Part shown: positions 906 through 29,040 of the stretch, piece by piece
Layout of the letters: each line of letters starts with the position of its first letter
How positions within the stretch are numbered: position 1 is the first letter of the stretch
Assembly (NCBI GenBank): GCA_964520655.1
Contig: CAZFNI010000006.1
Location: 14,790 to 78,789 of the forward strand
DNA length: 64,000 bases
DNA from: an uncultured Planctomycetales bacterium
Lineage (GTDB): Bacteria > Omnitrophota > Gorgyraeia > Zapsychrales > Fredricksoniimonadaceae
Direction of reading: 5' to 3'
Notes under the pieces: model-generated
What the model was told of the DNA's origin: nothing
Database searches by the model: none
Seen by the model: only the letters and a program-made list of their open reading frames with translations
Program-made: the position numbers and the translations under genes

Positions 906-1211
906 ATGAGAACACTGATGTTATCGTTCCTGCTGGTTACTGCTGGTGCGGCTGGCGCTTGGGCCGCCTTCACCTCGAATGTGACGGTCCTGGAAAAAAC
1001 GGAAATGGTCAGATTAAGTGATGAAAAGCTCATTGATGCTTACCAGGATGTTCTAGTCGAGCTAGAAGCTATTCGTGCTTTTCATGCGACATCAGGGTTC
1101 TCTCCCAAGCAGTATGATGAGTTCCGCGGGCTATTAAAATACCGCCTGCAGCTGTTAATGGAGATCCACACACGCAATATTGAAATACCCCAACAAATGG
1201 AGCGGATTTGA
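906..1211 (+). CDS. small hypothetical protein with N-terminal signal/TM segment
   Basis: ORF with strong RBS (GAGGAGGA); hydrophobic N-terminus; stop overlaps the next gene start region. Confidence 0.4.
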   Translation: MRTLMLSFLLVTAGAAGAWAAFTSNVTVLEKTEMVRLSDEKLIDAYQDVLVELEAIRAFHATSGFSPKQYDEFRGLLKYRLQLLMEIHTRNIEIPQQMERI

Positions 1212-1212
1212 T

Positions 1213-3531: not shown

Positions 3532-3537
3532 AACTTT

Positions 3538-4950: not shown

Positions 4951-4958
4951 ATGTTCCC

Positions 4959-6218: not shown

Positions 6219-6227
6219 ATGCGTTCC

Positions 6228-8915
6228 TTAGGATATCATCGGGTTTAATTTGTCCGCGTTGATCTTCAGTTCCTTTTGCGCGGCTTCCAAAACATTGGAA
6301 GACAGTTTTTTGTCCTGTGCTAATGACACGAGTGTCGCCCAGACAATGTGTTTGGCATCCACTTCAAAGAAATCCCGCAGGGCTTCGCGGCTCTCTGATC
6401 GACCGAATCCGTCGGTGCCTAAGACCGTGTAGCGCCCAGGGATCCACTGGCGAATAGAATCAGGAAGGACTTTCATATAATCGGACGCGGCCACGAAAAC
6501 GCCGCTTTCATCCTTTAACAATTGGGAAACATACGGTGTCTGGACATCTTTGGCCTTCAATAAATTGGCGCGCTGGGCATGAAGCGCGTCGCGGCGCAGT
6601 TCATTGTAGCTGGTGACCGACCAGACATCAGTAGACACATTGTATTTTTCTTCGAGGATCTTCTGCGCTTCCAGCACTTGGTTCATGATCGCGCCAGAAC
6701 CAAATAAATGTGCTTTCAGGGACGATGATTTAGCGGATTTGCTGAAACGATACATCCCTTTAAGGATGCCTTCTTTGGCACCTTGCGGCATGGCCGGCAT
6801 GGCATAGTTCTCATTACCGACGCTTAAATAGTAGAAGATGCTTTCCTGCTTTTCATACATGCGATAGATACCGTCGCGGATGATGACGGCGATCTCAAAG
6901 GCGAATGCCGGATCATAAGAGACTAAATTCGGAACGGTGGAGGTCAACAGGTGCGTATGGCCATCCTGATGCTGCAAACCTTCGCCGTTTAAGGTGGTGC
7001 GGCCAGAGGTCGCACCGACCAAGAACCCTTTGCAGCGTAGATCCGCGGCAGCCCAAACCAGATCGCCCACGCGCTGCGGTCCGAACATGGAATAATACGT
7101 ATAGAAGGGGATCATGTTGATGTTATGCGACGCATAGGCTGTGCCCGCGGCGATAAACGATGAGATGGCCCCAGCTTCGTTGATACCTTCTTCTAATATC
7201 TGGCCGTCTTTGGCTTCTTTGTAATACATTAAACTGTCAGAATCGACAGGTTCATATAATTGACCGACATGCGAATAAATACCAACTTGGCGGAACATGC
7301 CTTCCATCCCAAAGGTGCGGGCTTCATCCGGGATGATGGGGACAATGTATTTGCCAAGCGCGCCGTCGCGCAGCAATTTGGCCAACACGCGCACATAGGC
7401 CATGGTGGTCGACACTTCGCGGGCTTCCGTGCCTTTATAGAATTCTTCAAAGAGTTCTTCAGAGGGTGTCTGCAGTTTTGTCACCTCCGTGCGGCGGGAG
7501 GGCAGATAGCCGCCCAAGGCCTCACGGCGTTCGCGCAAATATTTCATTTCCGGTGAATCTTCGGACGGCCGATAAAAAGGTGCTTTAGCGACTTCAGAGT
7601 CCGAGATCGGGATATTGAAGCGGGAACGAAATTCCTTAAGTTCTTGATCGTTAAGCTTTTTCTGTTGATGAGAAATGTTCTTGCCTTCGCCACTTTCGCC
7701 TAAACCGTAGCCTTTGATGGTGTGAGCCAACACAACCGTGGGGGCTCCCTTATAATCACAGGCCGCCTTGTAGGCTGCATAGACTTTTTCCGGGTCATGG
7801 CCGCCGCGGTTTAGCTGCTGGATCTCGGTATCGGATAAATGTTCCACCATCTTAAGCAGGCGGGGATCAACGCCAAAGAATTTTTCACGGATATAAGCGC
7901 CGGAAGAAACGGAGTATTTTTGCATTTCACCGTCCACCACTTCGCCCATGCGCCGGGCCAGTAAGCCTTCGGTATCATTGGCCAGCAATTCATCCCAGCC
8001 ATTGCCCCAGACGACCTTAATGACGTTCCAGCCAGCCCCGCGGAAGAGGGCTTCCAGTTCCTGAATGATCTTGCCGTTGCCGCGCACCGGTCCGTCTAAA
8101 CGCTGTAAGTTGCAGTTGATCACAAAATTCAAATTATCGAGCTTTTCGCGGGACGCCATGGTCAAGGCGCCTAAGGATTCCGGCTCATCACACTCCCCAT
8201 CACCCATATAAACCCATACTTTGTGGTCATCTTTGGGTTTTAAGCCCCTATCTTCCAGATAACGGTTAAAACGGGCCTGGTAAATGCCCATAATGGGGGC
8301 TAAACCCATAGAAACGGTCGGAAATTGCCAAAAGTGGGGCATAAGCCATGGGTGTGGGTAGGAAGAAAGTCCTCCAGTGGGGCTTAACTCCCTGCGGAAA
8401 CTAACTAAATTTTGTTCATTTAAGCGGCCTTCCATAAAAGCGCGGGAATAGATCCCTGGGGATGCGTGACCCTGGAAATATACCAAATCACCGCTGCTGT
8501 CTTTGGTGCGTGCTTTAAAGAAGTGGTTGAATCCAACCTCATAAAGAGTGGCAGATGAGGCAAAAGTGGAGATGTGACCACCAACGCCATCTGTGAGCTT
8601 GTTTGCTTTGACCACCATTGCCATAGCGTTCCAGCGGATAATCGACTTGATCCGGCGCTCTAATTCTCGGTTTCCCGGGTATGGCGGCTGTTTATCTTTG
8701 GAAATGGTGTTGATATAGGGGGTATTATAGGTGAAGGGTAAGGTTACGCCTGATTCTTGAGCGCGTATCTGCAGCTGCTGCAAGAGGTATTGGACTTTTT
8801 CCGGGCTACCGCTGGATAAAACATAGTCCAGTGATGCCAGCCATTCTTTCAGCTCAACATCATCAATAACAGCAGGTTTCTTAACATTAGACTCATCAGA
8901 CATAACAACTCCCAT
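6228..8915 (-). CDS. aceE: pyruvate dehydrogenase E1 component, homodimeric type
   Basis: 895-aa protein of AceE type, collinear with E2 and E3 downstream on the same strand; GGAG RBS. Confidence 0.9.
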   Translation of the reverse strand: MGVVMSDESNVKKPAVIDDVELKEWLASLDYVLSSGSPEKVQYLLQQLQIRAQESGVTLPFTYNTPYINTISKDKQPPYPGNRELERRIKSIIRWNAMAMVVKANKLTDGVGGHISTFASSATLYEVGFNHFFKARTKDSSGDLVYFQGHASPGIYSRAFMEGRLNEQNLVSFRRELSPTGGLSSYPHPWLMPHFWQFPTVSMGLAPIMGIYQARFNRYLEDRGLKPKDDHKVWVYMGDGECDEPESLGALTMASREKLDNLNFVINCNLQRLDGPVRGNGKIIQELEALFRGAGWNVIKVVWGNGWDELLANDTEGLLARRMGEVVDGEMQKYSVSSGAYIREKFFGVDPRLLKMVEHLSDTEIQQLNRGGHDPEKVYAAYKAACDYKGAPTVVLAHTIKGYGLGESGEGKNISHQQKKLNDQELKEFRSRFNIPISDSEVAKAPFYRPSEDSPEMKYLRERREALGGYLPSRRTEVTKLQTPSEELFEEFYKGTEAREVSTTMAYVRVLAKLLRDGALGKYIVPIIPDEARTFGMEGMFRQVGIYSHVGQLYEPVDSDSLMYYKEAKDGQILEEGINEAGAISSFIAAGTAYASHNINMIPFYTYYSMFGPQRVGDLVWAAADLRCKGFLVGATSGRTTLNGEGLQHQDGHTHLLTSTVPNLVSYDPAFAFEIAVIIRDGIYRMYEKQESIFYYLSVGNENYAMPAMPQGAKEGILKGMYRFSKSAKSSSLKAHLFGSGAIMNQVLEAQKILEEKYNVSTDVWSVTSYNELRRDALHAQRANLLKAKDVQTPYVSQLLKDESGVFVAASDYMKVLPDSIRQWIPGRYTVLGTDGFGRSESREALRDFFEVDAKHIVWATLVSLAQDKKLSSNVLEAAQKELKINADKLNPMIS

Positions 8916-14103: not shown

Positions 14104-14511
14104 GGGGGTGATTGGTCTCGACTTGTTTAGCTCGAGGTTAGATGGCATGCCGGGGAAGCTTGGTCGGCCCCGATACCAATCCAAGCACAAATTACACGCT
14201 AACAACACGTTAACGTTCGACGGTGTTATGGCGGAATTCGCGAAAAGCGAAGCTCCGGCAGAAGCCGTTGCTGTCTAAGCTCAAGTAGCTTAGCCTGTTT
14301 ACCTAGAACGCCTGCTACTGGGATAAACAGCCGAAAGCAGGCTGCTCCAAATGGATGCTCTTAACGTTTGGCTAAGACTTCATAGGGCTGGCTTTATGTT
14401 GCTCCTGTCTGCTGGAAGACATAAAGCGATGATCATGTAAACAGACTACGCATGTAGATGTCTCTCCTTAGAAACTCAAGGACCCGGGTTCGATCCCCGG
14501 CACCTCCACCA
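14104..14511 (+). ncRNA. ssrA: tmRNA (SsrA), one-piece, with encoded CCA
   Basis: 5' GGGGGTGATTGGTCTCGAC... and 3' ...GGACCCGGGTTCGATCCCCGGCACCTCCACCA. The acceptor stem GGGGGTG/CACCTCC pairs with one G-U, and there is a tRNA-like T arm. A candidate tag ORF AEFAKSEAPAEAVAV-stop lies at about 14232-14279. Confidence 0.9.
14490..14511 (+). repeat. attL-like copy of a direct repeat (the 3' end of ssrA)
   Basis: tcgatccccggcacctccacca; repeated with one mismatch at 18208-18229. Confidence 0.75.
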
Positions 14512-14542
14512 GCCTACGCTGTCAGAATTAAAATAGCGGAGG

Positions 14543-14582
14543 CTGTCCGCCGAAGCTCCAAAGGAGCGAAGGCGGACACAGC
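14543..14582 (+). terminator. imperfect stem-loop downstream of ssrA (GCTGTCCGCC...GGCGGACACAGC)
   Basis: About 10-bp stem with one bulge and an 18-nt loop; no U-tract, so factor-independent termination is uncertain. Confidence 0.25.
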
Positions 14583-14655
14583 TACGGCTGGCTACGCCAG
14601 TCCGCCGGAGCTTGCTGCAATCAAGCGTAGGAGGACTAATCTTACCCAAAATCTT

Positions 14656-14895
14656 ATGCACTACGTCTACCGCCTACAATCCATTGAACACCCCGAGCAG
14701 AAATATACCGGTTTCACATCTGACATCACCAAGCGCCTTGAATATCACAACAATGGTCAATCATCCCACACGTCAAAATATAAGCCCTGGAAATTGATAA
14801 ATTATTTTGCTTTTGACGATCAACAGAAGGCAATGGCTTTCGAAATGTATCTCAAGTCCGGTTCAGGAAGAGCATTTACGCAGAAACATTTTTAA
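14656..14895 (+). CDS. GIY-YIG nuclease family protein (80 aa)
   Basis: HYVYRLQS...YTGFTSDITKRLEYHNNG matches the GIY-(x10)-YIG...R...E...N motif. Start trimmed from the track ORF 14458 because its upstream part overlaps the tmRNA. Confidence 0.7.
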   Translation: MHYVYRLQSIEHPEQKYTGFTSDITKRLEYHNNGQSSHTSKYKPWKLINYFAFDDQQKAMAFEMYLKSGSGRAFTQKHF

Positions 14896-15026
14896 AATAC
14901 AGAGATTGTTTCAGATCCTTCCCAAAAGGCAGGTTGTAATAATGATAGTTTTTGTAGCACTAAAGACAGTTGATGAAGAGTGTAGTGTGCTACATTGAGC
15001 AGAGGGCAGAGGTTTCTTAATAAATA

Positions 15027-15052
15027 AAATAGGGCGCTGTCCCCTATTTTAT
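15027..15052 (+). terminator. rho-independent terminator (AAATAGGG-cgctgtc-CCCTATTT plus T-run)
   Basis: 8-bp stem, 7-nt loop, followed by a TTTAT tract. Confidence 0.5.
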
Positions 15053-15105
15053 TCATATTTTGTTTTCAAATCGTGAGTATTAAATCATAAATAGAGGCAT
15101 AGAAT

Positions 15106-15390
15106 ATGAATGAGAATTATGATCGGCATGATTTTTTAAGGATTGCTATACCGGGGTACATTTTTCTTCTGGTTTTATGGACGTATTGGGTAATTCTAAA
15201 TAATAATATTAAATTTGATGATCCTAAGTCACTTATTGGGGTATTGGCAGCCGGATTTCCTATTGGATTTATTATTCAAGGCATATATCAAGCTTGGCAC
15301 ATTAAATTAGGAGACTTAGATTCACTAGATGGTTGGGAAGGGGAATGTTTAGTAAAGGCGTTAAAGGCAAAAATGAGGAAGGGCTTTTAA
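15106..15390 (+). CDS. island hypothetical membrane protein
   Basis: AT-rich ORF with 2 TM helices; its 3' end overlaps the next ORF in another frame just upstream of an A8 run. Confidence 0.3.
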   Translation: MNENYDRHDFLRIAIPGYIFLLVLWTYWVILNNNIKFDDPKSLIGVLAAGFPIGFIIQGIYQAWHIKLGDLDSLDGWEGECLVKALKAKMRKGF

Positions 15391-15803
15391 AAAAAATTTG
15401 TGCTCCTAAATTTGGTATTCCTGAGTTTAGAAAGATTTCGTGGAGCCTAGAGACATTTTTATTCTTGAAAGAAGAAGAAGAGTATCGAAAGCGGAGTCAT
15501 GAATTAGTTTCTAGAATCCATTCCTTCGGAGCAGCGTGCTGTGCTGTTTTAATTGCGGTTTTGATTAGTCTTTTCGTGGTCTCGAGTTGCTACGATCACT
15601 GTCTTTGTTGTCTGGTTAGCTGCACTGTTGGGCTTAATATATTAGTAGATACTTTTTTCTGGGGGGTAGTTGTGTGGTGTTTTATAATAGGAAGGAATCA
15701 TACAAAAGAAGTTTTTCGTTTAATGTTCTGGAATTTTATTCAAATAAAATCAGATAAATTTATTAAATATATTAAGAAAGATGAAAACAATAGTTGCGCC
15801 TAA
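15333..15803 (+). CDS. island hypothetical membrane protein (possibly the 3' part of the same gene as 15106)
   Basis: Cys-rich TM protein; the stop codon lies inside repeat R1. Confidence 0.3.
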   Translation: MGRGMFSKGVKGKNEEGLLKKICAPKFGIPEFRKISWSLETFLFLKEEEEYRKRSHELVSRIHSFGAACCAVLIAVLISLFVVSSCYDHCLCCLVSCTVGLNILVDTFFWGVVVWCFIIGRNHTKEVFRLMFWNFIQIKSDKFIKYIKKDENNSCA

Positions 15804-15834
15804 ACGGTGCCCATCTAAAGTGAAAAATTATAAT
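15796..15834 (+). repeat. island internal direct repeat R1 (gcgcctaaacggtgcccatctaaagtgaaaaattataat)
   Basis: Copy 1 of 3; overlaps the stop codon of the upstream ORF and ends 5 nt before the next ORF. Confidence 0.7.
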
Positions 15835-15839
15835 TTCAT

Positions 15840-16193
15840 ATGATTAATGGGATTGGCAAGAAACATTTTGGTGAGAGTAATTATATTCTTGATGAACGCT
15901 CTAATGATGAAGAGTTTGACACGACTCAATGGTTCGTATTCTTATGGCTGCCTATATTTCCTTTAAAATCTTATAGAATCAGGCAAAAGTATTGGTCTAT
16001 TCGTCGTCAATCTGATGCTTGTATTTCTATGCATAATGGTGGTTTAGAATTAAGGTATGACAATACTTTTATTATTATTAAAGAATATAAATTGAATTGG
16101 AAGCGGGCAATAAAAACTTATTTCTTTGTACATGGAACAATCTTATTGCTTTTTGTTGTTTTTGGTTATGTCATGCCGAATTTTGTTAAATAG
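15840..16193 (+). CDS. island hypothetical protein (C-terminal TM)
   Basis: AT-rich ORF, 117 aa. Confidence 0.3.
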   Translation: MINGIGKKHFGESNYILDERSNDEEFDTTQWFVFLWLPIFPLKSYRIRQKYWSIRRQSDACISMHNGGLELRYDNTFIIIKEYKLNWKRAIKTYFFVHGTILLLFVVFGYVMPNFVK

Positions 16194-16261
16194 ATTGAAT
16201 ATTCTTTTATTATTTAATGCTAGTGCCTTAAAGTAATAGATTAATCTATTATTAGACTATT

Positions 16262-16573
16262 ATGATTAAACTAAGTAGCAGAACTTTAAAATTAATTAAA
16301 ATTTTTTACGAATTTGAAGAAGAACAAGAAGAAGTAATTTCAGTATTAGAAAATCAATGTGCTGATAATCTGCCATTTTGTGAGAATGGAACTCCATTAT
16401 CGATGGAAAGAATCAGATTTTCAGTATTAAGGCTTGATAAAGAACATGGGGAATTTAATCAATGGGTAAAATTGGCTAATATAGATTGGCGGGATTTATT
16501 TATTGCTGCTGGATTTGGTGATACAGATGCGCACTTAGATTGGGCCAACAAGTTAATAGAACAAAGAACTTGA
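16262..16573 (+). CDS. island hypothetical acidic protein
   Basis: AT-rich ORF, 103 aa; followed by repeat R2. Confidence 0.3.
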   Translation: MIKLSSRTLKLIKIFYEFEEEQEEVISVLENQCADNLPFCENGTPLSMERIRFSVLRLDKEHGEFNQWVKLANIDWRDLFIAAGFGDTDAHLDWANKLIEQRT

Positions 16574-16579
16574 TTAGTT

Positions 16580-16618
16580 CCTAAAAGGCGCCCATTTAAA
16601 GCAAAGAATTTTTATAAT
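16580..16618 (+). repeat. island internal direct repeat R2 (cctaaaaggcgcccatttaaagcaaagaatttttataat)
   Basis: Copy 2 of 3, immediately after the stop codon of ORF 16262-16573. Confidence 0.7.
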
Positions 16619-16672
16619 GTTGTAAGAGTAAAGGTCTACTAAAGTGTTTATCGATAGGAAACAGGCTCGTAC

Positions 16673-17068
16673 ATGAGAAAATTAACTTGCTATGTTCTAA
16701 CCTTGACGCTTTGTATAGTTTTTAATAGTTGTTCAACAATGGAGAGTATAAAAAAGAATTACCAATCAGTTAATTACTCGGACGGCATAGATGTGAGTGA
16801 AGCAAAATTCATTGCTCAGAGTTTTGCAATTAAACAAGATTGGAAGCAATGCTACAATATTAGTCATCCAACGGCTCAAACAATGAATACAGTACGCTCA
16901 AACGGCCATAAAATATGGCAAGTAACTTTTTCTGCAACATATTCTGAGAATATAAAACAAGCGAGTCTTTTCGGATTATTAGGTTTATATAGGGGCGGTG
17001 CCAATGTAGGCATTGATAAGCAAACTGGCAAAGTGGTAGAGGTATTCTTAACAACTTTCGATTTATAA
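16673..17068 (+). CDS. island hypothetical lipoprotein
   Basis: Signal peptide with a lipobox-like LCIVFNSC; 131 aa. Confidence 0.35.
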   Translation: MRKLTCYVLTLTLCIVFNSCSTMESIKKNYQSVNYSDGIDVSEAKFIAQSFAIKQDWKQCYNISHPTAQTMNTVRSNGHKIWQVTFSATYSENIKQASLFGLLGLYRGGANVGIDKQTGKVVEVFLTTFDL

Positions 17069-17118
17069 TAGTTTATTGGTGTACAAATGTTTTATATCCA
17101 AGGTAAAAAATTGTAATT

Positions 17119-17469
17119 ATGGTTATATTAAAGAAATTAGCTAAGGTCTTTCTCTATTTTTTTATAATATTTGTTTCTATTTGTAAACTTTTCGAATCAG
17201 GTTTGATTGATTTTTCATATAAGGATGGACTTGAGGAGTATAAAAAGGGCTCATACAAAAGAACAATAGATTTCTGTGATAAATCTCTTCGTTTTATGCC
17301 TCGAAATCCGAAAGTATATTATCTTAAGGCGTTGGCATATTATCAAATGAATGATTTTGATGGCGCATTAGGGACATTAGATAGGTTGTTTATTTATGAT
17401 CCTACTAGCAAACAAGCGATAGAATTACGGGATGATATATATCGATTGAAAGGAATCAAAATCAAATAA
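17119..17469 (+). CDS. island small TPR-like protein
   Basis: TPR-like repeat YYLKALAYYQMNDFDGALGTLDRL; N-terminal TM. Confidence 0.35.
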   Translation: MVILKKLAKVFLYFFIIFVSICKLFESGLIDFSYKDGLEEYKKGSYKRTIDFCDKSLRFMPRNPKVYYLKALAYYQMNDFDGALGTLDRLFIYDPTSKQAIELRDDIYRLKGIKIK

Positions 17470-17545
17470 AGTTTTTATGTCTAAAAATGGCGCCAAAAAG
17501 GAGGTTAAAGTTTTCAGCAACGCAACCATATAAAGCCCCCAAAAT

Positions 17546-18085
17546 ATGTCCGAGCAAAAGCCAAAAATTCATAAATTTATTCAATTTTTATTATTATTTC
17601 TTATTCCCAATGTTCAAACTTTTGGTTTAAAGATTATTATTGTTATTGGTGTAGGATTAGCGCACGCAATTAATGTTAATAACGGTGTGTTAATTGGCGT
17701 ATTGATAATGTTGTCGGCAGCAACGTTGTCTTTTGTTTTTGGTATTTTGTTGTATGGCTTGATCGATTTACCAATATTGTTAACTGCAATTGTTTATTGT
17801 TTTGTTCTTCATTTACCTATGCTCTATGCTTCAATTTTGAGTAAAAATTTTAATTTTTTGCTGATATTGGCACAAATAGCCACTTTGCTCATAAGTATAA
17901 TGTTAGTCCGTTTTGGTATTTTATATGCTCAAAAAGTAAGATCAAAAGAACCGGATGGTGGAGAATTAAAATTGGTGATTCCAGAAGCAGTAGTAATAAC
18001 AGGATTGATTCTATTTTGGTTTTTAATTCTGATTATATTTAAGTTATTGGAAATGGTTTTTAGTGCCCAAACGGTGCCCATTTAA
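17546..18085 (+). CDS. island hypothetical polytopic membrane protein
   Basis: 5-6 TM helices; the last 7 codons and the stop are encoded by repeat R3. Confidence 0.35.
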   Translation: MSEQKPKIHKFIQFLLLFLIPNVQTFGLKIIIVIGVGLAHAINVNNGVLIGVLIMLSAATLSFVFGILLYGLIDLPILLTAIVYCFVLHLPMLYASILSKNFNFLLILAQIATLLISIMLVRFGILYAQKVRSKEPDGGELKLVIPEAVVITGLILFWFLILIIFKLLEMVFSAQTVPI

Positions 18086-18104
18086 AGTGAAAAAGTTGTA
18101 AAAT
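18065..18104 (+). repeat. island internal direct repeat R3 (gcccaaacggtgcccatttaaagtgaaaaagttgtaaaat)
   Basis: Copy 3 of 3; forms the 3' end of ORF 17546-18085; about 100 bp from attR. Confidence 0.7.
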
Positions 18105-18207
18105 CTTGTATAAGGTTGTATAGCATGTGGAAAGTGGCTAGAGGGTATTTATCGACGCTGTTTGTTGTAACCTGTTGCAAATAATTAATATTTGTCGACG
18201 GAATCGA

Positions 18208-18229
18208 TCGATCCCCGGTACCTCCACCA
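18208..18229 (+). repeat. attR-like copy of the ssrA 3'-end direct repeat
   Basis: tcgatccccggtacctccacca, 21/22 identical to 14490-14511. Confidence 0.75.
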
Positions 18230-18309
18230 TCTTTTTTCGTACCATCAGTTTTACCGTCGCTCTGCCTTAAATTTGCCTTTCGCTCTATATAGTTTATACT
18301 TTCTATATA

Positions 18310-21300
18310 ATGCGATCCCCATTATTGATTCTTCTTGCCTTTGTATTTTTCATTGATTCTTTGTGCCCTCACTATATCGGAGCGCAAGAACTGGTTTTGC
18401 CAACTCCCGGCAGCATGGTGCAGTTAAGTCCTGCGCTTGATCCCGCTGTACTAAAAGGCATCAAAGTCCATCCAGAGAATCCTTTCAAGTTTGATTTCGT
18501 TTTGGATAAAGGCCAATCCATGCTGCGCGATGCCCAGATCAAAGAGGAATCAACAAAACTCGTTAAATATTTCCTATCTGCATTAACTATCCCTGAAAAA
18601 GACCTTTGGGTGAACCTAAGTCCGTATGAAAAAGACCGTATCGTGCCGGAAAGTTTCGGGCAAACCGAAATGGGCCGCGATCTATTGGCTCAGGATTATT
18701 TGCTTAAACAGATCACCGCGAGTTTAGTCTATCCGGAAGGGGATATTGGTAAACAGTTCTGGAAGAGGGTGTATGAGTTGTCCGGGAATAAGAATGTCCC
18801 GGTCAATACGTTTAATAAAGTGTGGATCGTCCCGGATAAAGCGGTGGTGTATGAGAATGCGAAGAATGGTACAGCGTATGTCGTTGAATCATCATTAAAG
18901 GTATTAACAGAACAGGATTATCTAGCCCAGGATAAGAATGCGGCGGGTGGCGCCCAAGCTGTTCGTTTCGCCCGCAGCTTAAGGGGGACAATGGCATTAT
19001 CTCCTGCTACCCCACGGGGGGATGGGTTAAGCGAGGACGAAAGGAACAGTTGGGCGACAGGACCCGCTCATGCTATTCGTGATCTTGTTATTCCGCAATT
19101 GACCAAAGAGGTCAACACGGGTGCGAACTTCGCCCAATTGCGTCAGGTCTATAATTCTCTCATCCTGGCAACTTGGTATAAGAAGAGGATCAAGGACAGC
19201 ATTCTCTCCCAGGTCTATTCGGATAAAAACAAGGTAGATGGTATCAAGATCAATGATCCCAAGGAGAAAGAACGGATATACACTCAATACTTGGAAGCAT
19301 TCAAGAAGGGTGCGTATAACTACATCAAAGAAGAGCAAGATCCCAACACCCACCAAATTTCTCCAAGAAAATATTTTTCTGGAGGGTTTGATCTGGCGAT
19401 GCTGTCGCAGATCAAGACCACCGACGATCCCCAAAGCATTGCCCCTGGCAGAAATGAATATTTATCCTTAGAGGTTGGGATCAATGAGTCGATCGATCCC
19501 GCACAGATCACTGTAAAAAAAGAAGCGCAACGGTTTTATTATTGGCTGTTCCCAAGAAAAACATTGCCTGATTGGACGGTCGAGAAGATCACCAGTTTGA
19601 AACAAGATACGGCGGATAAAGAAGAGAAAGCGCAGGATGCTGTTGAAGTATTTCAGGATCTTTTAAGAAGCTTTCAAGGTGATCCTGAGAAGTTATTCAT
19701 GAAGATCAGGGCGGACTTTGATCTGCCTAAGATCAATACGGTTGATCTGACCAAAAGGATCAAGGCGGGTTATTACGATTCTGGCGCTCACAAGGATGTT
19801 TATTTGATCGAATTTGAGACCCGCCGAGGCCCGCCTTTAACAATGGCTATTGTTTTAAAACGCGAACAGGCGCCTGGAGATATTGCCGGCAATGAGGTCA
19901 CTGACCTTAGGCGGCTGACAAAATTAGGCAAGAAGGAAAAAAGCAAATACCCGGTTCCTGCCATGGGAGATGTGATCAAGACCGAGGGCGGCCGTCTGAT
20001 GTACCTGGAAGAATTTATCGAAGGCTCAACGGTGGATCAGCTTGAGCAGCAAGGGAAGCTGACATTAAAGATCAGACAAAAGCTGATCGAGAATTTGTTT
20101 AAGATATCGCGGGGATTAAGTGCGGAGATCAGTATTCCCATTGACTTTCATAAACGCAATTGGGTTGTCAACAGCGATGGGGAACCGATCATGGTGGATA
20201 TCGGCAACCGCCGGGTGAATATTTTCTCCCAAAGAGAAAGTGCCGGACATCGGTCAGAAGCATTCTTGCTCATGAGTTTGATGGTCCAGTATGGTTTTGG
20301 TGATGCCAGAGACAGATTTATTTTTGATGCTATCGCCAGATCATTGCCGGCAGAGGCGACCAGTGCGTTTTTCGAGAATGTGCTCGCGTTCTTTATCAAC
20401 ACCGAAGGGGTGGCGCGGTTGATGCAGAAAAAGGGAGGGACTTTCTTTTTGGATCTGCGCGGCGGGGACGGGGATTTCGAGAAAGCGTTACAGGGTTTAG
20501 CGGAGAATTTCAATGAGATCTTCAAAGCATATCTGGATAATCCTGCGCCGTATATTAACGAGAATGATCTTAAAGGCGTTAATCCCAAGGTGATTGCAGG
20601 GGTTCTGTTGTTGGTGCTGGTTTCTTTAAGGTCATCAGATAGCAACATCACGATTGATCCTGAAACGATCGCACAATTAGAAAAAATAAGCGGGGCTATT
20701 CCCCAACAAATGCAATCAGGATCTCCAGCGGTGGAGCAGGAACAAAAAGTAGAAAGGGAAAAGTCTGTTCAATTCCATTATTCAGAGATCTTGTCGTTAG
20801 GTTCCAAGGGCGCAGCCTTTAATGAATTCAAAGAATTGTTCTTGAAGGCACAGAACATTGCAGATCTAGAAAGATATATCAAGGATCTAAAAGGAAAGGT
20901 TAATCCGATCACGGGAAGAGTGTACATTTTTCAGGATGATCCGGGCGATGTTGTTCACAAAGCGTTGAATGCCGCCACATTGACAAGAGAAGTGGAGATA
21001 GCGCTCATTGCCTTTCAACGGCATTGGAATTTGCGAGAAGACGGGGATGTCGGGCCGGAAACAAGAACAAAGATCAAGGATCAAATGGACAGGGCCATGG
21101 TCCAACCGGTGGCAACAAGAGAAGAAGCTGAAAGTATACTGGTCACTTCAGATCAATTGAAAGAGATTCAACAACAACGCGCATTGACGCGGGAAGAGAT
21201 CCAACAATTTAGCGAACAATTCCCAAGTTTTGATTGGGAAAAAGCTTCTTATGTTCCCTGGGGGGAAGTTGTGCATGATCCGCGCCGCGAACCTGGTCCA

Positions 21301-23373
21301 CAAAACTTGAATCAATTGCACATGTGGCAGAATTTGTTTGATGTGCGCAGGTATTCTTTATTCATGGTAAAAGACATTCTTGAGGGCAAGCTGGATGCTC
21401 AGGGTTTTAAGACAGCGTTAATAGCAATGCACCGCAGGCTTCTGTTAGGTGAAAAAGGATCAAGGCCTTATTTCCCGAGGCTCATGAGAACATTAATCAA
21501 ATTGCAAGATGAAAGTTCTTACGGTGTATTAAACAACCACATGAGTGCTAAAAGCAATGCTTTGTTCCCTATCATTGATCGTTTTCTCAAGAGTAAGGAT
21601 GTGGATATTAATAAAAAGCTCGACTATCTGGCTGAATTCTATGTCGTTTTTATGCATCCGGAATATTTCTTTCAGGAAGGGAATAATTCTTTAGTGATGG
21701 ATATGATAAACGGTTTGCTGCGTTTATCCCGAAGCAACGGTATAGCGCACGGGAATATGGATCGTTTATTTTTAATGGATATCGATGAGATAACAATGCG
21801 CAATGCGTTGAAACGGGAAATTGTTGGGTTGTTTGCTGCCGCGCAAAAGAGCGAGCAAATAAATGATAGCGGAAATCAAGCGATGGCCGTGATCCCGGAC
21901 ATGTCTGACAAAGAGGTGGAGTTCGCTAAGATCGTTAGCGGACTGGATCTTCCTCCCCGAGCGCGGATATTGACCATCGGCGCAACTTACGGCAAGAAAC
22001 TTAGATCGGGAAGGCTCAGGCAGCATCTGAGGCAAGTCAGGGCAGAAGAGATCTATGCGGCTTTGGGCCATCATGTCGATGTTTTTCAGTCTGATGAAGA
22101 TGGTGCCCTATGGCAGAAAGCAACAGAGGATGCGCAGCGACCAGCATATATGCAGAACATCCAGGTTTATCCAGTTCGTTTTGGAAAAGAAAGCCCAATA
22201 GCAGAGGGCAGTATTGATCTGGTGGATATGATGAGCGTGATCACCAATCCAAATGATCTTGAAGCAAATCCGGGAAATATCTACGGCATTCTTGACGGTA
22301 TTGCGAAGGTTCTCAAAGACGGCGGGTTGTTGAGGGTGGGGTGGTATAACGACGGCGACCAGGAAAATGAAGCCGCGCGGACAGATTTTCTTCTTAGACA
22401 TTTGAGAAAATATGTTGAGCTTGTCGAGGTCACTTCTGGAGAGAATGAGGCCCATCGCTGGGTGATCTATAAAGCGAATAAGATCAACAGCAAAGAATTT
22501 TCGCAGAATATGGATGAGGGCGATCCGTCATTTGAAGACGATAGCGCCATGAAGGCGCTCTCTGTTAAAGAGCAGACTCAAATGATGAAAGTACTGCAAA
22601 TGGCGAAAGAAAGTCGGTTAAGGCCTTTGGGCGTTAAGGGAGAAACTTCTGCTTTAAATGTCTTAATAAAAGGTGCAGGTGGTGCTCAGAAAGCATTGTC
22701 ATGGATCGATGGATTTAAAAGCATAGATGATCTGAGCTGGGAAGATCGAGTGAATCTTAGAAAAATGCGAATAGAGATTTTATTTATGTTAGGCAGAATA
22801 AAGCAAGCAAAACAGGAGATATTCCAGTTTAGGGATTTTGTCGGGAATGCCAGTGCTGTATCTTTGGGAATAGGGAATGAGGAATTTGAAGAAATACGTC
22901 TAAAGGGTTTCTTGAAAGGAATTCATTTGGTCCATAAGTATATCTTTACAAGCAAGACATCCGGGTTGGATATTGATTTTGCTGGTCCCGTGTTGGGTTA
23001 TCAAGCGATAAGCCTCCAGGGACATTTATTAATGGCGCAGATCTATCATGATCTTGGGCGATATGCACAAGCCTATCAAGAACTAGGGAAATGTGTGTCG
23101 GTAACGGATTTTCATCGGGCATATTTTGAGAAGTTACATGCTGAGATACTTGCGGACATTCATAAAAAGATGGATGAATATCCAGAGAGAAGAGGCGGTA
23201 TTGATCTCAACGATGATCGTCTTGACCTTAGAATAAAGAACGACGGGGGATCAATGTCTTTATATGTGGACCCAGCCATGCTCGAACAACTTAAAAGTGT
23301 TCCTGGGTTTACGCCCGTCATTATCAATATCCAGCCTTTGCCTGATGTAAAAGCATTTCTGATCAATCGTTGA
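18310..23373 (+). CDS. giant secreted multidomain protein (1687 aa) with a peptidoglycan-binding domain, a kinase-like segment and a degenerate Fic-like motif
   Basis: Signal peptide; PG_binding_1-like LNAATLTREVEIALIAFQRHWNLREDGDVGPETRTKI; kinase-like DFHKRNWVVN...MVDIGNRR; HPEYFFQEGNNS resembles the Fic HPFx[DE]GNGR motif; no SD sequence, possibly leaderless. Confidence 0.5.
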   Translation: MRSPLLILLAFVFFIDSLCPHYIGAQELVLPTPGSMVQLSPALDPAVLKGIKVHPENPFKFDFVLDKGQSMLRDAQIKEESTKLVKYFLSALTIPEKDLWVNLSPYEKDRIVPESFGQTEMGRDLLAQDYLLKQITASLVYPEGDIGKQFWKRVYELSGNKNVPVNTFNKVWIVPDKAVVYENAKNGTAYVVESSLKVLTEQDYLAQDKNAAGGAQAVRFARSLRGTMALSPATPRGDGLSEDERNSWATGPAHAIRDLVIPQLTKEVNTGANFAQLRQVYNSLILATWYKKRIKDSILSQVYSDKNKVDGIKINDPKEKERIYTQYLEAFKKGAYNYIKEEQDPNTHQISPRKYFSGGFDLAMLSQIKTTDDPQSIAPGRNEYLSLEVGINESIDPAQITVKKEAQRFYYWLFPRKTLPDWTVEKITSLKQDTADKEEKAQDAVEVFQDLLRSFQGDPEKLFMKIRADFDLPKINTVDLTKRIKAGYYDSGAHKDVYLIEFETRRGPPLTMAIVLKREQAPGDIAGNEVTDLRRLTKLGKKEKSKYPVPAMGDVIKTEGGRLMYLEEFIEGSTVDQLEQQGKLTLKIRQKLIENLFKISRGLSAEISIPIDFHKRNWVVNSDGEPIMVDIGNRRVNIFSQRESAGHRSEAFLLMSLMVQYGFGDARDRFIFDAIARSLPAEATSAFFENVLAFFINTEGVARLMQKKGGTFFLDLRGGDGDFEKALQGLAENFNEIFKAYLDNPAPYINENDLKGVNPKVIAGVLLLVLVSLRSSDSNITIDPETIAQLEKISGAIPQQMQSGSPAVEQEQKVEREKSVQFHYSEILSLGSKGAAFNEFKELFLKAQNIADLERYIKDLKGKVNPITGRVYIFQDDPGDVVHKALNAATLTREVEIALIAFQRHWNLREDGDVGPETRTKIKDQMDRAMVQPVATREEAESILVTSDQLKEIQQQRALTREEIQQFSEQFPSFDWEKASYVPWGEVVHDPRREPGPQNLNQLHMWQNLFDVRRYSLFMVKDILEGKLDAQGFKTALIAMHRRLLLGEKGSRPYFPRLMRTLIKLQDESSYGVLNNHMSAKSNALFPIIDRFLKSKDVDINKKLDYLAEFYVVFMHPEYFFQEGNNSLVMDMINGLLRLSRSNGIAHGNMDRLFLMDIDEITMRNALKREIVGLFAAAQKSEQINDSGNQAMAVIPDMSDKEVEFAKIVSGLDLPPRARILTIGATYGKKLRSGRLRQHLRQVRAEEIYAALGHHVDVFQSDEDGALWQKATEDAQRPAYMQNIQVYPVRFGKESPIAEGSIDLVDMMSVITNPNDLEANPGNIYGILDGIAKVLKDGGLLRVGWYNDGDQENEAARTDFLLRHLRKYVELVEVTSGENEAHRWVIYKANKINSKEFSQNMDEGDPSFEDDSAMKALSVKEQTQMMKVLQMAKESRLRPLGVKGETSALNVLIKGAGGAQKALSWIDGFKSIDDLSWEDRVNLRKMRIEILFMLGRIKQAKQEIFQFRDFVGNASAVSLGIGNEEFEEIRLKGFLKGIHLVHKYIFTSKTSGLDIDFAGPVLGYQAISLQGHLLMAQIYHDLGRYAQAYQELGKCVSVTDFHRAYFEKLHAEILADIHKKMDEYPERRGGIDLNDDRLDLRIKNDGGSMSLYVDPAMLEQLKSVPGFTPVIINIQPLPDVKAFLINR

Positions 23374-23413: not shown

Positions 23414-24070
23414 GTGTTTAACATGTCAGAAAATATTCAACATCCATTGGCTCGTGTATCACTGTTGATGGGATGGCTTATGCTTGTCCTGTGGGCTGCT
23501 GTTGCCATGGCGGAGAGTAAACCACCCGTGAGTTTTAAGCATGTGCCGCTACAATATATCGCGGCATTAGGGGATCCTAAGGCCAACGCCGGCAGCGGCG
23601 CTCAGTTGTGGGGGGTGTGGACGATGGATCCCGGTCCGCGCGGCTGTATGTTGGATAATTATGCCGCATTAAAAGCAGCCGGCGGCATTGCTCCGGCGCA
23701 ATGGAAGTTCGACCATCAAGATTGGTGGCTGGAGGAGCACGGCTTAATTATGGAGAAGCCGGTATTCCCCATCCCTCCGGGGCAGTATGTAGTGACCGGC
23801 GGGCGGGAGGTCACGGCGGTACTAACGATCTATCCTCCGGATAAAACAGGCGATCAGCGATGGGTGTTGGGGGATGGTACGACGCTCCATGATGTAACGC
23901 ATTTGCCCTGCCGTGCAGCACGCTATCGGCCCGCTGAAGGCGGGACATGTTCTCCAGATGTTGCACAAAGAACGGATTTCCCGGTGACCCCGGGAGCGGC
24001 CATGCCCGCGGTCAAAGGATGCCGTAAACAAGATTACGCTGTTCTTTTTTTGATCGGAACAGCACAGTAA
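23414..24070 (+). CDS. hypothetical secreted protein
   Basis: N-terminal TM/signal segment; 218 aa; no recognisable motif. Confidence 0.4.
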   Translation: MFNMSENIQHPLARVSLLMGWLMLVLWAAVAMAESKPPVSFKHVPLQYIAALGDPKANAGSGAQLWGVWTMDPGPRGCMLDNYAALKAAGGIAPAQWKFDHQDWWLEEHGLIMEKPVFPIPPGQYVVTGGREVTAVLTIYPPDKTGDQRWVLGDGTTLHDVTHLPCRAARYRPAEGGTCSPDVAQRTDFPVTPGAAMPAVKGCRKQDYAVLFLIGTAQ

Positions 24071-24091: not shown

Positions 24092-24697
24092 ATGAAGAAT
24101 AAAATATTCATATTGTTTGTGTTGAGTATGGTTGCCGGTCCGATGATCGGTTTTTGTGCTGTGAATTTGAAACCAAAGACAGCGGCCGAATGGCGGGAAT
24201 ATTTGCGCTACCGCCGGGATCAAACACTGGAAGATCTTTATAAACTACAGCCGCAAGCGCGTTTGGAGATCATGAAGGCAAAGGGGTATGCGACCTTTTC
24301 AAGTTTGAATGTGAATTTGGTCTTGGCCAGCATGACAGGAGGCAGGGGCATTCTTCATGTCAATGGGCTGCTTGGCGGTAAAGACACGTTCATGCGCATG
24401 GCGCAAGGAGGTTTGGGATTTGGTTTGGGGGTTAAGGATTTTCGCGCAGTCTTTATTTTTGATGATCAGGAGGTTATGGACAGGTTCTTAAACAGCGGCT
24501 GGTCATTTGGTGGTGAAGCGGACGCCGCGGTCAAAGGGGGCGGGGCTGGGGCTGCGGCCAGCGGTGCGATCGCGGTCGCTCCGGGTTTACGGGTTTATCA
24601 ATTGACGGAAAATGGCCTTGCGCTGCAAGCAACGGTTCATGGCACTAAATATTGGCGGGATGCTTTCGTCAACGGCGATAAGAATGCCAGGGAATAA
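24092..24697 (+). CDS. SYLF (Ysc84-like) domain secreted protein
   Basis: Signal peptide; Gly-rich GGRGILHVNGLLGGK...GGLGFGLGV...GGEADAAVKGGGAGAAASGAIAVAPG pattern typical of bacterial SYLF/DUF500 proteins; AAGGAG RBS. Confidence 0.45.
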   Translation: MKNKIFILFVLSMVAGPMIGFCAVNLKPKTAAEWREYLRYRRDQTLEDLYKLQPQARLEIMKAKGYATFSSLNVNLVLASMTGGRGILHVNGLLGGKDTFMRMAQGGLGFGLGVKDFRAVFIFDDQEVMDRFLNSGWSFGGEADAAVKGGGAGAAASGAIAVAPGLRVYQLTENGLALQATVHGTKYWRDAFVNGDKNARE

Positions 24698-24882: not shown

Positions 24883-26886
24883 ATGGGCATAAAAATCGAC
24901 AATAATTTGAAGATCATTATTTCCGGGATTATTTTGGTTTCTTTATTTTCGGTATTTTGGGTTGTTTCTTCCAAAACGCTCAGTGAACTGCAAATTGGTT
25001 CCCCCCTTTATAAGCGTATTGCTTTAAATAATGAACTAGTCGCCGACATTCTGCCTCCACCGGAGTATATCTTGGAAACATATCAAGTGACGCTGCAGCT
25101 ACTGGGAGAGCCCGATCCTAAGACTGTCGGTGAATTGATCGAGAAAACAAGATCATTGCAGAATGATTACAACACGCGTCATGAATATTGGCAAAAAAGT
25201 CTGGATGAAGGCAAGATGAAAAGCACATTACTTGCGGATTCATTTGCCCCGGCCAATGAATTCTATCGTATTTTAAATGAGCAATTTATCCCGGCCATTC
25301 AAAAGGGGGATAAAGAGACAGCGGCGAAACTTGCTTTTGGGGATCTTGAGGTTCAATATAAGGCGCATCGCGCGGCGATCGATCAGGTTGTCGCGATGGC
25401 CAATGAGCGCATCAGCAAGGATCAGGCCTCTGCTGATCAGACGGTTAAAGAGAGGACCAACCTTTTAACAGGGGTGGGTGTTGTGATCGTTTTGGCCATT
25501 ATCATTGTTCTTTTGGTCTTGCTTAAGACGCTATCGATCACGGTGTATGTCAGCAAGATCAAAGATGTGCTGCAGGCGATGACCAACGGGGATCTAACCA
25601 AGCATTCCAATATCAAGCGTTCCGATGAGATCGGTTCCGTCGCGGACATGCTAGAACAGTTAAACGGGCGTTTATCCCAAATGGTCGCGCAGATCCGTTC
25701 CTCAGCAGAGCAATTGGTCGCCGCCACTGAGGAGGTTTCGACCAGCGCGCAGAAGATCTCGGATGGGGCCCAGCAGCAAGCAGCTTCTTTTGAAGAATTA
25801 TCTTCCTCTGTTCAATCGAATGCCAGCAATGCCCAAACTGCCAGTGAAGTCTCTCAGGTTGTGTCCGTCAGCGCGAATACAGCCGGAGACGGCATGAATA
25901 ATACGATCGATGCCATGAATGGTATTGAGAAAAGCTCCAAACAGATCAATGAGGCGGTTGAGATTATTACGGATATTGCGGACCAAACCAATCTGTTGGC
26001 ATTGAACGCGGCCATTGAAGCGGCGCGTGCCGGGGAGCATGGTAAGGGTTTCGCGGTCGTTGCTGATGAGGTGCGTAAGTTAGCCGAGCGTTCGGCCTCT
26101 TCTGCCAAGGATATCAAGGCCATTATCCAGGAAAGCTCCCAGCAGGTTTCCAAGGGTGTGGATCTATCCAAATCCGCGGGAGACGGCTTAAAGAAGATGG
26201 TGGTTGATATCGCGAAAGTAGCCGAGCAGCTCAAAGCGATCTCAGGGGCCACCCAAGAACAGGCAGCGACGATGGAGGAGAATACATCGATCACGGAAAG
26301 CAATGCGTCGGCGGCAGAAGAGCTGGCCGCGTCGGCAGAAGAGATGTCTGCCCAGGCCGAAGAGCTGCAGAAAATGGTCAGTTTCTTTAAGACAGATATG
26401 GCCCATGTGTCGTCTGTTTCCGCTAGTGCCGGAACAGCTGCATCCCACAAGCCATCGTCAGGTTCACATCATGCTGCCAAACACAGCGCTCATAGTGAAA
26501 AACATGAAACTGTTCCGTTGAGGATCGGCGGCGAGATGGATTTTAAAGCGGCGATCGATGCTCATGTTCAATGGAAAATGAAATTGCGCGGCTATGTCAG
26601 CAATCCGGACAAGTCCTTGAAAGCAGATATTGTTGGTGTTGACAATAAATGTGCCTTAGGCCAGTGGATCTACGGCGAAGGCCGTAAATTCCAGGACCTA
26701 TCCGAATATGCCCAGCTCAAAGAAGAGCATGCTCAATTCCATAAATGTGCCGCAGAGGTCATAGCACTTGCCGATGCCGGGAAAAAAGAACAGGCGAATG
26801 AGGTTGTTAATCATGGTGCGTATGCAAAGATCTCGAATTCTGTGGTGCAGCGTATTGGAGCAATGAAAGAAAAGGCTGAAGGATAA
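24883..26886 (+). CDS. methyl-accepting chemotaxis protein with C-terminal CZB (chemoreceptor zinc-binding) domain
   Basis: TM, HAMP, MA signalling domain with [36 protein letters not shown]; C-terminus has HVQWK...CALGQW...H spacing typical of CZB. Confidence 0.85.
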
Positions 26887-28266: not shown

Positions 28267-29040
28267 ATGAAAAAGTTTATTTTTGCCTTAACAGTAACAT
28301 TGATCTCGTTAGCGGGGAATGCCCACGCCTATATTGTAGACGGTTTGGTCAATGACTGGGGAGTTTCCCTGACCGCGGCGGGTGCGCAATACCGTAACTA
28401 TTTAGATACCCACTTACCTTCCAGTCCAACAGCTGATCATGTGACCGAAGATAATGTGGACTACAGGGATGGTACTGTCTTTGTCGGGCCGGGTTGGTCA
28501 GTTCATAATATTTATGACGCTGAAGCGTTATATATGGATAATGATCTCTCCAATCTTTATCTGGCCTTGATCACGGGGTTGCCAAAATCAGAAGTGACAT
28601 ATCCTTCTGGGGACCTCTTCATCGATACAGGTAAGTATCAGGATCCGACCTCTCCATTCTATAACCCCAAAAAGTATCAGTATGGGATCGATATCGCTAC
28701 TTCCAAACTATATTCTGTCGACAGCTGGCAGGATGTGGTGCATTTCGCGGATGCTAATCCCTGGCGTATTGGGGCCAGCAAAACATTCATCGCGGATGTC
28801 CCATTCTTCTACAGCGGGGAACAAAATACTCACTATGTTCTGGAAGCGGGCGTGCCTTTGAATCTTCTTGGTTTGAAGGACAAGGATGCGGTGTACCTGC
28901 ACTGGACGATGAAATGCGGTAACGATACATTAAATCTACATGGGGACGTCAATGCTGTTCCCGAACCTGCCACCATGGCTTTGTTTGGTACTGGTTTGGC
29001 GGGCATGTTGCTGCGCAGGCGTAAAGTGAACGGGGTATAA
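28267..29040 (+). CDS. PEP-CTERM sorting-domain protein
   Basis: Signal peptide; C-terminal VPEPATMALFGTGLAGMLLRRRK (PEP motif, TM segment, basic tail). Confidence 0.8.
   Translation: MKKFIFALTVTLISLAGNAHAYIVDGLVNDWGVSLTAAGAQYRNYLDTHLPSSPTADHVTEDNVDYRDGTVFVGPGWSVHNIYDAEALYMDNDLSNLYLALITGLPKSEVTYPSGDLFIDTGKYQDPTSPFYNPKKYQYGIDIATSKLYSVDSWQDVVHFADANPWRIGASKTFIADVPFFYSGEQNTHYVLEAGVPLNLLGLKDKDAVYLHWTMKCGNDTLNLHGDVNAVPEPATMALFGTGLAGMLLRRRKVNGV

Follow-up and report, generated by a model that had tools for sequence, protein, structure and literature searches.

Multifunctional-autoprocessing RTX toxins (MARTX), found in Vibrio and relatives, have conserved arms around a mosaic of effector domains that varies between strains, and the linkers between these domains are processing sites. 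Omnitrophota are widespread, uncultured, ultra-small bacteria with a suspected parasitic or predatory lifestyle. An open puzzle is posed by their giant proteins, which are full of cytoplasm-type enzymes. Here we analyze a protein of 1687 amino acids (aa) encoded on a 64-kb stretch of contig CAZFNI010000006.1 from an uncultured member of this phylum. The whole stretch (64,000 nucleotides, nt) is called the window below, and nucleotide positions refer to it. A preliminary description, made from the sequence of this DNA alone, had presented the protein as an exported, mosaic and effector-like protein next to a mobile element, and our analysis supports this outline while changing several of its parts.

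The 1687-aa protein is a member of a very large family, apparently specific to Omnitrophota. We name its members ‘bookended’ exported proteins, as two conserved end-pieces frame interchangeable enzyme modules. It represents the phenomenon of the giant proteins in a smaller form, which is tractable and very numerous. The family is apparently undescribed: we found no account of it in Pfam, NCBIfam or the literature searched, which included the three main Omnitrophota papers and covers the field incompletely. We read the 1687-aa protein as an exported cargo carrier or effector, with a rough probability of 0.55.

Two conserved end-pieces frame a variable middle region

The gene is a single uninterrupted open reading frame (ORF) with an ATG start (Table 1). 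Relatives of the protein were searched among 5.8 billion proteins, and 8000 candidates were scored. This resulted in more than 4088 significant relatives (clusters), and the only full-length match was the query protein itself. The best 119 relatives, with lengths of 930–2800 aa, were mapped onto the query by BLAST. Residues 1–375 are common to essentially all 119, with about 60% identity. The second most conserved part is the last 57 aa (aa 1628–1684), found in 110–117 of the relatives with about 50% identity, and the region between the end-pieces is covered by 0–8 of them. The preliminary description had likened the protein to polymorphic toxins with swapped C-terminal modules and had suggested checking orthologs for C-terminal variability. 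Instead, the C-terminus is conserved family-wide, and the variable part is the middle.

The N-domain contains 68 invariant positions in alignments of 69–120 sequences, e.g. W100-VNLSPYE and YF.GG at 355–359. The C-domain has the consensus GGIDL...DPAML.QLQNAPGF.PVIINIQP...FLG. Family members are defined by a signal peptide, the N-domain (W100-VNLSPYE...YF.GG), cargo and the C-domain (GGIDL...PGF.PVI.NI.P...FL), and the 1687-aa protein has all four. No Pfam-A, NCBIfam or PHROGs model matches the N-domain or the C-domain, even at an E-value of 10. Searches with the whole protein and with 400-aa segments gave nothing above threshold in Pfam or NCBIfam and nothing in PHROGs, and the whole protein compared with PDB sequences returned noise only.

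A signal peptide had been proposed for the protein, and its N-terminus agrees with a Sec-type signal: it starts with MRS, continues with a hydrophobic core and ends with a predicted cleavage site between IGA and QE. Signal-peptide features are present in 105–108 of the 119 relatives, and about 90% of the members have basic residues before the hydrophobic core and a small-x-small site after it. A further strongly hydrophobic segment is absent in 106 of 120 members, as judged by a hydropathy scan.

When GTDB species were scanned, each represented by a single genome, we detected at least 557 family matches. The best 79 loci come from Omnitrophota metagenome-assembled genomes (MAGs) or from MAGs with default or uninformative labels. 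Up to eight of them belong to one assembly, and two or three tandem copies stand at several loci. Many paralogs have near-identical end-pieces. No second copy of the family was found within the window. Genes flanking the family members are not conserved, with the commonest neighbour family occurring in 7 of the 79 loci. At two loci (L057 and L070) the family gene stands between two gene blocks that directly adjoin each other in the window (906–8915), which indicates that copies have been gained or lost between related genomes. A divergent N-domain paralog with about 50% identity was seen at five loci (L006, L023, L059, L068 and L078), often immediately upstream of a typical family gene; the one in L006 has no detectable C-domain.

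Cargo is inserted at the junction of the end-pieces

A scan of viral contigs resulted in a distant relative of 896 aa (L080) with 28% identity in the N-domain. This protein is composed of a hydrophobic N-terminus, the N-domain, a Radical_SAM domain (E 1.4e-14) and a short tail with GGIDL. With its N-domain as query we found cargo-free proteins of 341–386 aa (P0255–P0267) on contigs of up to 81 kb. In these, a signal and the N-domain are joined to the GGIDL C-domain by a linker of about 40 aa. The L080 protein aligns to P0255 at aa 4–311 (62% identity) and at aa 823–895 (40% identity), and its 511-aa Radical_SAM region is an insert between the two aligned segments. As only the two ends align, the cargo of the L080 protein sits precisely at the N/C junction as a clean insertion, and the end-pieces are an autonomous unit.

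The N-domain of the 1687-aa protein also aligns to a cargo-free member (P0261, E 1e-28). Lipoprotein-type signals with L[AT]SC lipoboxes are present in P0259, P0260, P0261 and P0266. Secreted proteins that consist of the N-domain alone and end with YFSGG exist as well (e.g. P0277).

The L080 gene is located at 4839–7529 of the 98-kb IMG/VR contig IMGVR_UViG_3300035208_003134, which has a viral classification; a serine-recombinase fragment and an NT5C nucleotidase lie nearby. PP-binding, response-regulator and cupin genes form a common neighbourhood of the cargo-free members at three loci (L081 8001–9101, L082 8001–9101 and L083 2270–3400). Downstream of the cargo-free member in L081, at a distance of 1.5 kb, a gene begins that encodes at least 4819 aa.

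The middle region carries diverse enzyme-like modules

Precomputed Pfam matches in the middles of the relatives comprise a very wide range of domains. By their accessions, these include class I methyltransferases, HATPase_c, response regulators, GGDEF, PP2C, FHA, DnaJ, ABC1/RIO/Pkinase, NUDIX, HAD, PLD, deaminases, guanylate kinase, PPDK_N, M23 and M48 peptidases and HEAT repeats, as well as a glycoside hydrolase in some relatives.

The cargo modules of the 1687-aa protein were delimited by an exhaustive HMMER search with aa 400–1599. A word-indexed protein search with aa 400–930 gave zero matches, the query's own protein included, whereas exhaustive HMMER found 140 relatives of the middle. 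The blank is probably a limit of the word index, and negatives from this index need caution. Five modules were found: the kinase-like module A, the peptidoglycan (PG)-binding-like module E, the Fido module B and modules C and D. The nearest architecture is that of P0121, which consists of the N-domain, A, E and the C-domain; compared with it, the 1687-aa protein has B, C and D added ahead of the C-domain. Modules A and B are also found in proteins of 2.5–6.7 kaa (thousand aa) without both bookends (91 of 134 module relatives), which are similar to the giant proteins described for Omnitrophota.

Module A contains the signature IDFHKRNWVVN...IMVDIGNRR, which had been singled out as kinase-like and which is conserved. 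As in atypical (RIO, ABC1/UbiB) and eukaryotic-like kinases, the beta3 Lys, the helix-C Glu, the catalytic Asp...Asn loop (D-x-x-x-x-N) and the Asp of the DFG motif (here D-I-G) follow each other in order and with correct spacing. All catalytic residues are kept: G492, K495, K517, E529, D612, N617, D630 and G632 are invariant in 23 aligned members. The classical G-x-G-x-x-G loop of kinases is replaced by G-A-H-K, which we take to resemble the ‘GKE’ loop of RIO kinases. Comparison of the module A profile with the PDB resulted in MEK1 and other kinases, with a best E-value of 0.01. The MEK1 alignment spans the beta3 Lys, the catalytic loop (PrDxHxxNf versus hRDvKPsNi) and MVDiG versus cDFG. In Pfam, ABC1 matches 7 of the 23 members (best 7.9e-5) and Pkinase matches 3. 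Although these statistics are marginal, the motif pattern is complete, and we therefore accept a protein-kinase-like fold for module A; judging from its residues, the module is probably active.

A moderately hydrophobic segment lies between the kinase-like and the PG-binding-like modules, and P0128 has a comparable segment ahead of the same module.

For module E, a PG_binding_1-type domain had been proposed. The motif FQRHWNLREDGDVGPETR is present and matches the C-terminal half of PG_binding_1 (PF01471, profile positions 29–56 of 57), and all six module E members match this family (best 1.5e-6). The score in the 1687-aa protein, 21.4 bits (E 2.8e-4), is slightly under the Pfam gathering threshold of 23 bits. 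Against the PDB, the module E profile found the PG-binding domains of L,D-transpeptidases with E-values of 0.03–0.08.

The preliminary description had also pointed to a Fic-like motif with substitutions. Its sequence, HPEYFFQEGNNS, is located at aa 1116–1127, within module B. The module B profile found no Fic match in the PDB, and Pfam Fic matches 1 of 24 members (E 0.088). A confident AlphaFold2 model built from 24 sequences (predicted local distance difference test, pLDDT, 89.9; predicted template modelling score, pTM, 0.89) has a Fido fold, with an all-alpha core and a motif-bearing helix. Thus, module B is a Fido fold as modelled. When the Gly of GN is set to 0, the motif reads Y(-5) F F(-3) Q E(-1) G N N(+2) S(+3) L V M(+6). 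Unlike Fic/Doc proteins, module B has Tyr at the position of the catalytic His, and N, S and M stand in place of G(+2), R(+3) and R(+6). The 24 members lack a conserved His at -5, and the catalytic His and both Arg are missing in the whole module B family, which is beyond mere substitution and makes canonical AMPylation by module B unlikely. The module B family keeps a residue set of its own (E986, N1008, R1013, Y1054, N1134, H1147 and D1151). AvrB, a type III effector of Pseudomonas syringae, has a Fido fold and is also without the Fic motif.

The top PDB matches of the module C profile are S-adenosylmethionine (SAM) methyltransferases, with E-values of 0.13–1.2 only. This is suggestive only, and module C is possibly a degenerate SAM-methyltransferase-like Rossmann module. 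Module D displays weak TPR matches at aa 1570–1598.

A cargo repertoire of this kind is usual for cytoplasmic signalling and metabolism, and the same modules are mixed in the giant proteins of Omnitrophota. Both points would fit a membrane-anchored signalling protein, in which the N-terminal hydrophobic stretch serves as an anchor and the modules act in the cytoplasm on the producer's own proteins. However, such an anchor does not agree with the basic residues and the small-x-small site that flank the hydrophobic core in about 90% of the members or with the lipoboxes of the cargo-free relatives, and it would place the PG_binding_1-like motif on the wrong side of the membrane. We consider this explanation decidedly improbable.

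A family-specific motif marks module junctions

The tetrapeptide D-x-A-M occurs in the 1687-aa protein at aa 361, 927 and 1411, and a related NQAM at aa 1189. Each of these sites is at a boundary between independently defined homology modules. Across 120 members we counted 492 occurrences of D.A[MQ], compared with 55 expected from shuffled sequences. Outside the C-domain, D.AM occurs 345 times, and its flanks are not conserved. The median distance from D-x-A-M to the end of a homology block is 9 aa, versus 59 aa for random positions (p 5e-18). The offsets of the block ends are too diffuse to tell on which side of the motif the modules start.

The enrichment is 11.7-fold in bookended proteins and 0.9-fold in non-bookended proteins with the same modules. 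The motif is therefore no general feature of the cargo modules, and this explanation was rejected. The Asp and Ala codons of D-x-A-M vary synonymously, which indicates selection on the peptide and not on the DNA; a recombination junction at the DNA level was rejected on the same ground. These results indicate that D-x-A-M is a family-specific marker of module junctions. As it goes with the scaffold and not with the modules, its occurrences are good candidates for processing sites. We know of no protease site or sorting motif that corresponds to it.

The junction motif also bears on a reading in which the end-pieces are a handle for display, with the N- and C-domains anchoring or co-assembling enzymes on the envelope or a coat and no translocation into another cell. 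The lipoprotein-type signals of cargo-free members would suit such a handle, as would the near-identical end-pieces of many paralogs, expected with a shared docking partner, the PG_binding_1-like motif of the 1687-aa protein and the M23 peptidase or glycoside hydrolase cargo of some relatives. Extracellular coats and adhesion have been proposed for the giant proteins of Omnitrophota (PMC10066038; 10.1101/2023.11.21.568195). However, most of the cargo (kinase, Fido, GGDEF, HATPase, response regulator, DnaJ, radical SAM and NUDIX) would be idle on a surface without cytoplasmic cofactors or substrates, and display leaves the D-x-A-M motif unexplained. A display handle thus seems unlikely to us.

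Family genes share a predicted leaderless-type promoter

The absence of a Shine-Dalgarno sequence and the presence of TATACT close to the ATG had been noted before, together with the suggestion of a leaderless mRNA. We confirmed both observations for the 1687-aa gene: no Shine-Dalgarno sequence precedes it, and the TATACT box ends 9 nt upstream of its ATG. Family genes share an upstream pattern of CCCTTGTTTT, about 17 nt, (C/T)ATACTT, 6–9 nt and the ATG. A -10-like hexamer that ends 5–10 nt before the ATG was found in 30 of 84 family genes and in 13 of 428 other ORFs of the same loci (p 1.5e-16). Conversely, Shine-Dalgarno-like sequences precede 10 of the 84 family genes and 153 of the 428 other ORFs (p 9e-6). 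The 1687-aa gene displays this family trait, with a -10 box no more than about 10 nt from the ATG and without a Shine-Dalgarno sequence. Given the position of the box and the family-wide statistics, the leaderless suggestion holds as a family trait. The mRNA of the 1687-aa gene is probably leaderless or nearly so, and a leaderless-type promoter is predicted for the family.

Genomic setting and base composition

As the preliminary description had stated, the gene adjoins an attR-like site. A 22-nt repeat that matches the 3′ end of the transfer-messenger RNA (tmRNA) gene at 21 positions lies 80 nt upstream of the ATG. Between the tmRNA gene and this repeat is a low-GC island of 3.7 kb (14512–18229; GC 0.338 versus 0.488 in the rest of the window). 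The island is an element integrated at the tmRNA gene, with 18208–18229 as its right repeat. Its proximity to the 1687-aa gene looks incidental: the island entered the tmRNA gene, and the 1687-aa gene is a chromosomal neighbour with its own promoter. No tmRNA gene was found in the 79 family loci, and hence no positional ortholog beside one.

The island encodes eight short ORFs, mostly without a Pfam match, and a GIY-YIG nuclease ORF (14458–14895) that overlaps the 3′ end of the tmRNA gene. No integrase was found among the scanned ORFs, and the island may therefore be a decayed element. A repeat of about 51 nt (..GTGCCCAAACGGTGCCCATTTAAAGTGAAAAA..) is present in the island in three copies with 63–78% identity (15793–15843, 16574–16624 and 18060–18110), each located directly after ORFs of the island. 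Downstream of the 1687-aa gene, an ORF at 24092–24697 encodes a Ysc84-like domain. It is followed by genes for a methyl-accepting chemotaxis protein with a CZB zinc-binding domain (24883–26886) and for a PEP-CTERM protein (28267–29040), both of which are ordinary chromosomal context.

The 3′ half of the gene had been described as visibly more AT-rich than the 5′ half. The GC content did not bear this out, with 0.458 in the 5′ half and 0.438 in the 3′ half, a difference of two points only. GC and GC at third codon positions (GC3) vary instead from module to module (Table 1), and the GC pattern of the gene is a module-by-module mosaic. Over the whole gene the GC is 0.448, and no other 2.5-kb stretch of the window falls below 0.459.

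Mosaic modules with uneven GC3 are one of the points that would suit a classical polymorphic toxin, i.e. a protein with an N-terminal trafficking region, a swapped low-GC C-terminal toxin, a neighbouring immunity gene and a link to the mobile island. Fido and kinase folds are known in toxins and effectors, and some relatives carry deaminase or PLD cargo. However, the extreme C-terminus is conserved family-wide, and no toxin-trafficking domain (Rhs, CdiA, PT-TG and similar) from Pfam or NCBIfam is present. A search for an immunity-like ORF nearby had been recommended, and no recurrent neighbour or immunity-like gene was found downstream of the family genes in the 79 loci; the ORF that follows the 1687-aa gene (23414–24070) has no counterpart beside them. 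In addition, the gene is located beyond the island repeat, and its promoter is its own and of the family type. For these reasons the polymorphic-toxin model fails, and we regard it as very improbable and largely refuted.

Table 1. Features of the 1687-aa gene and of the adjoining tmRNA locus, with positions in the window.
Feature	Position	Strand	Details	GC	GC3
tmRNA gene	14104-14511	+	ARAGORN; left copy of the island direct repeat at its 3′ end (14490-14511)		
attR-like 22-nt repeat	18208-18229	+	21/22 matches to the tmRNA 3′ end (14490-14511)		
Sigma-70-type promoter-like site	18273-18300	+	TTGCCT (18273-18278), 16-nt spacer, TATACT (18295-18300)		
Coding sequence incl. stop codon	18310-23373	+	1687 aa		
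Sec-type signal peptide (predicted)	18310-18384	+	aa 1-25; predicted cleavage between IGA and QE		
Conserved N-domain	18391-19389	+	aa 28-360, ends PRKYFSGG; ~60% identity across paralogs		
First D-x-A-M, DLAM	19390-19401	+	aa 361-364, directly after the N-domain		
Module A, protein-kinase-like	19567-20544	+	aa 420-745; K517, E529, D612, N617, D630, G632; RIO-like loop G492-A-H-K495	0.471	0.54
Moderately hydrophobic segment	20569-20634	+	aa 754-775, core KVIAGVLLLVLVSLR; hydropathy scan; borderline membrane helix		
Module E	20692-21114	+	aa 795-935; PG_binding_1-like motif aa 894-921 (nt 20989-21072)		
Second D-x-A-M, DRAM	21088-21099	+	aa 927-930		
Module B, Fido fold (modelled)	21127-21810	+	aa 940-1167; motif Y1119-F-F-Q-E-G-N-N-S-L-V-M1130	0.409	0.43
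Module C	21847-22509	+	aa 1180-1400; NQAM at aa 1189-1192	0.483	0.51
Third D-x-A-M, DSAM	22540-22551	+	aa 1411-1414		
Module D	22642-23190	+	aa 1445-1627; helical, TPR-like; relatives P0013, P0118, P0165; lowest GC3 in the gene	0.393	0.35
Conserved C-domain	23191-23370	+	aa 1628-1687; without a Pfam match		

Discussion

We propose that the 1687-aa protein is an exported cargo carrier or effector. The conserved end-pieces would serve as a common handle that a single partner recognizes; the handle would act in export, envelope attachment or hand-over. The payload would be the middle region. Most of the payload needs ATP, GTP or SAM, yet the protein leaves the cytoplasm. It is therefore most plausible that the payload enzymes act, as effectors, at or inside another cell, which might be a host or a prey cell. 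The D-x-A-M junctions would be candidate processing sites that free the modules. An effector fits the kinase and Fido folds, both of them chemistries classically found in effectors, and it fits the parasitic or predatory lifestyle proposed for Omnitrophota (PMC10066038).

Several points weigh against this proposal. Secretion beyond the inner membrane, translocation into another cell and cleavage at D-x-A-M are steps that we infer, and no secretion-system genes were found nearby. Cargo such as radical SAM would be hard to mature after Sec export, and the topology prediction could be wrong instead. The N-domain has no fold match in the PDB, so its fold gives no functional lead. The module A segment of the 1687-aa protein has no Pfam match, and the kinase E-values are marginal (0.01 against the PDB). 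Module B departs from the catalytic motif HxFx(D/E)GNGRxxR and may be a pseudoenzyme or perform another chemistry. Finally, the phylum assignment of some loci is taken from record titles only.

A more far-reaching form of the proposal is that the N- and C-domains together are a phylum-wide platform for cargo insertion, in which leaderless transcripts, export of hundreds of different captured cytoplasm-type enzymes, release at D-x-A-M and action inside host or prey cells would be parts of one system. We put this forward tentatively, as a possibility that is more doubtful than probable. If it were true, the platform would be a previously unrecognized system for effector delivery and processing behind the parasitic or predatory lifestyle of Omnitrophota. 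If the effector proposal itself is true, the list of cargo is a catalogue of how Omnitrophota manipulate their partners.

The family offers concrete features for further work: a two-piece scaffold, an N-domain without a match among solved folds, a clean insertion point, a family-specific junction motif and a shared promoter type predicted to be leaderless. D-x-A-M can be searched for in proteomes, the cargo-free unit of about 370 aa is small enough to be expressed and solved, and the copy counts per genome can be correlated with lifestyle.

The giant multidomain proteins of Omnitrophota (Archaeovorin, Dockerin-type; 10.1101/2023.11.21.568195; 10.64898/2026.06.07.730766) come from the same phylum as the bookended family and likewise have cytoplasm-type enzyme domains behind signal peptides, and kinase-like and Fido modules recur in proteins of 2.5–6.7 kaa. 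They differ in the scaffold, as most module relatives (91/134) are without both bookends and D-x-A-M stands there at 0.9-fold instead of 11.7-fold. The texts of these two papers, searched for N- and C-terminal features, contain no description of the bookended family.

The family also resembles systems in which many unrelated enzymes share a conserved terminal module behind a signal peptide, such as the C-terminal domain of the type IX secretion system (T9SS), S-layer homology (SLH) domains, dockerins and PEP-CTERM. Unlike these, it needs two handles, at the N- and at the C-terminus, and not one. The last 60–87 aa have no Pfam, NCBIfam or PHROGs match to a sorting signal (T9SS C-terminal domain, PEP-CTERM, GlyGly-CTERM and similar).

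With MARTX the family shares conserved N- and C-terminal arms that frame a swapped central mosaic, whereas cleavage in the linkers is only hypothesized here. In contrast to MARTX, the 1687-aa protein is without RTX or glycine-rich repeats, a cysteine protease domain or a type I secretion signal (Pfam, NCBIfam), and the family uses a Sec signal peptide. Its arms are far smaller (330 and 57 aa), and dozens of paralogs per genome stand against one toxin gene. Polymorphic toxins (Rhs, CdiA, MafB) resemble the family in joining a conserved region to interchangeable enzymatic modules and in their many variants. The family differs from them in being variable internally, with a conserved C-terminus and without an immunity partner or a known trafficking domain. 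The bookended protein can thus be likened to MARTX and to polymorphic toxins as a modular effector carrier but fails the defining tests of both, and there is a real chance that its scaffold is categorically new.

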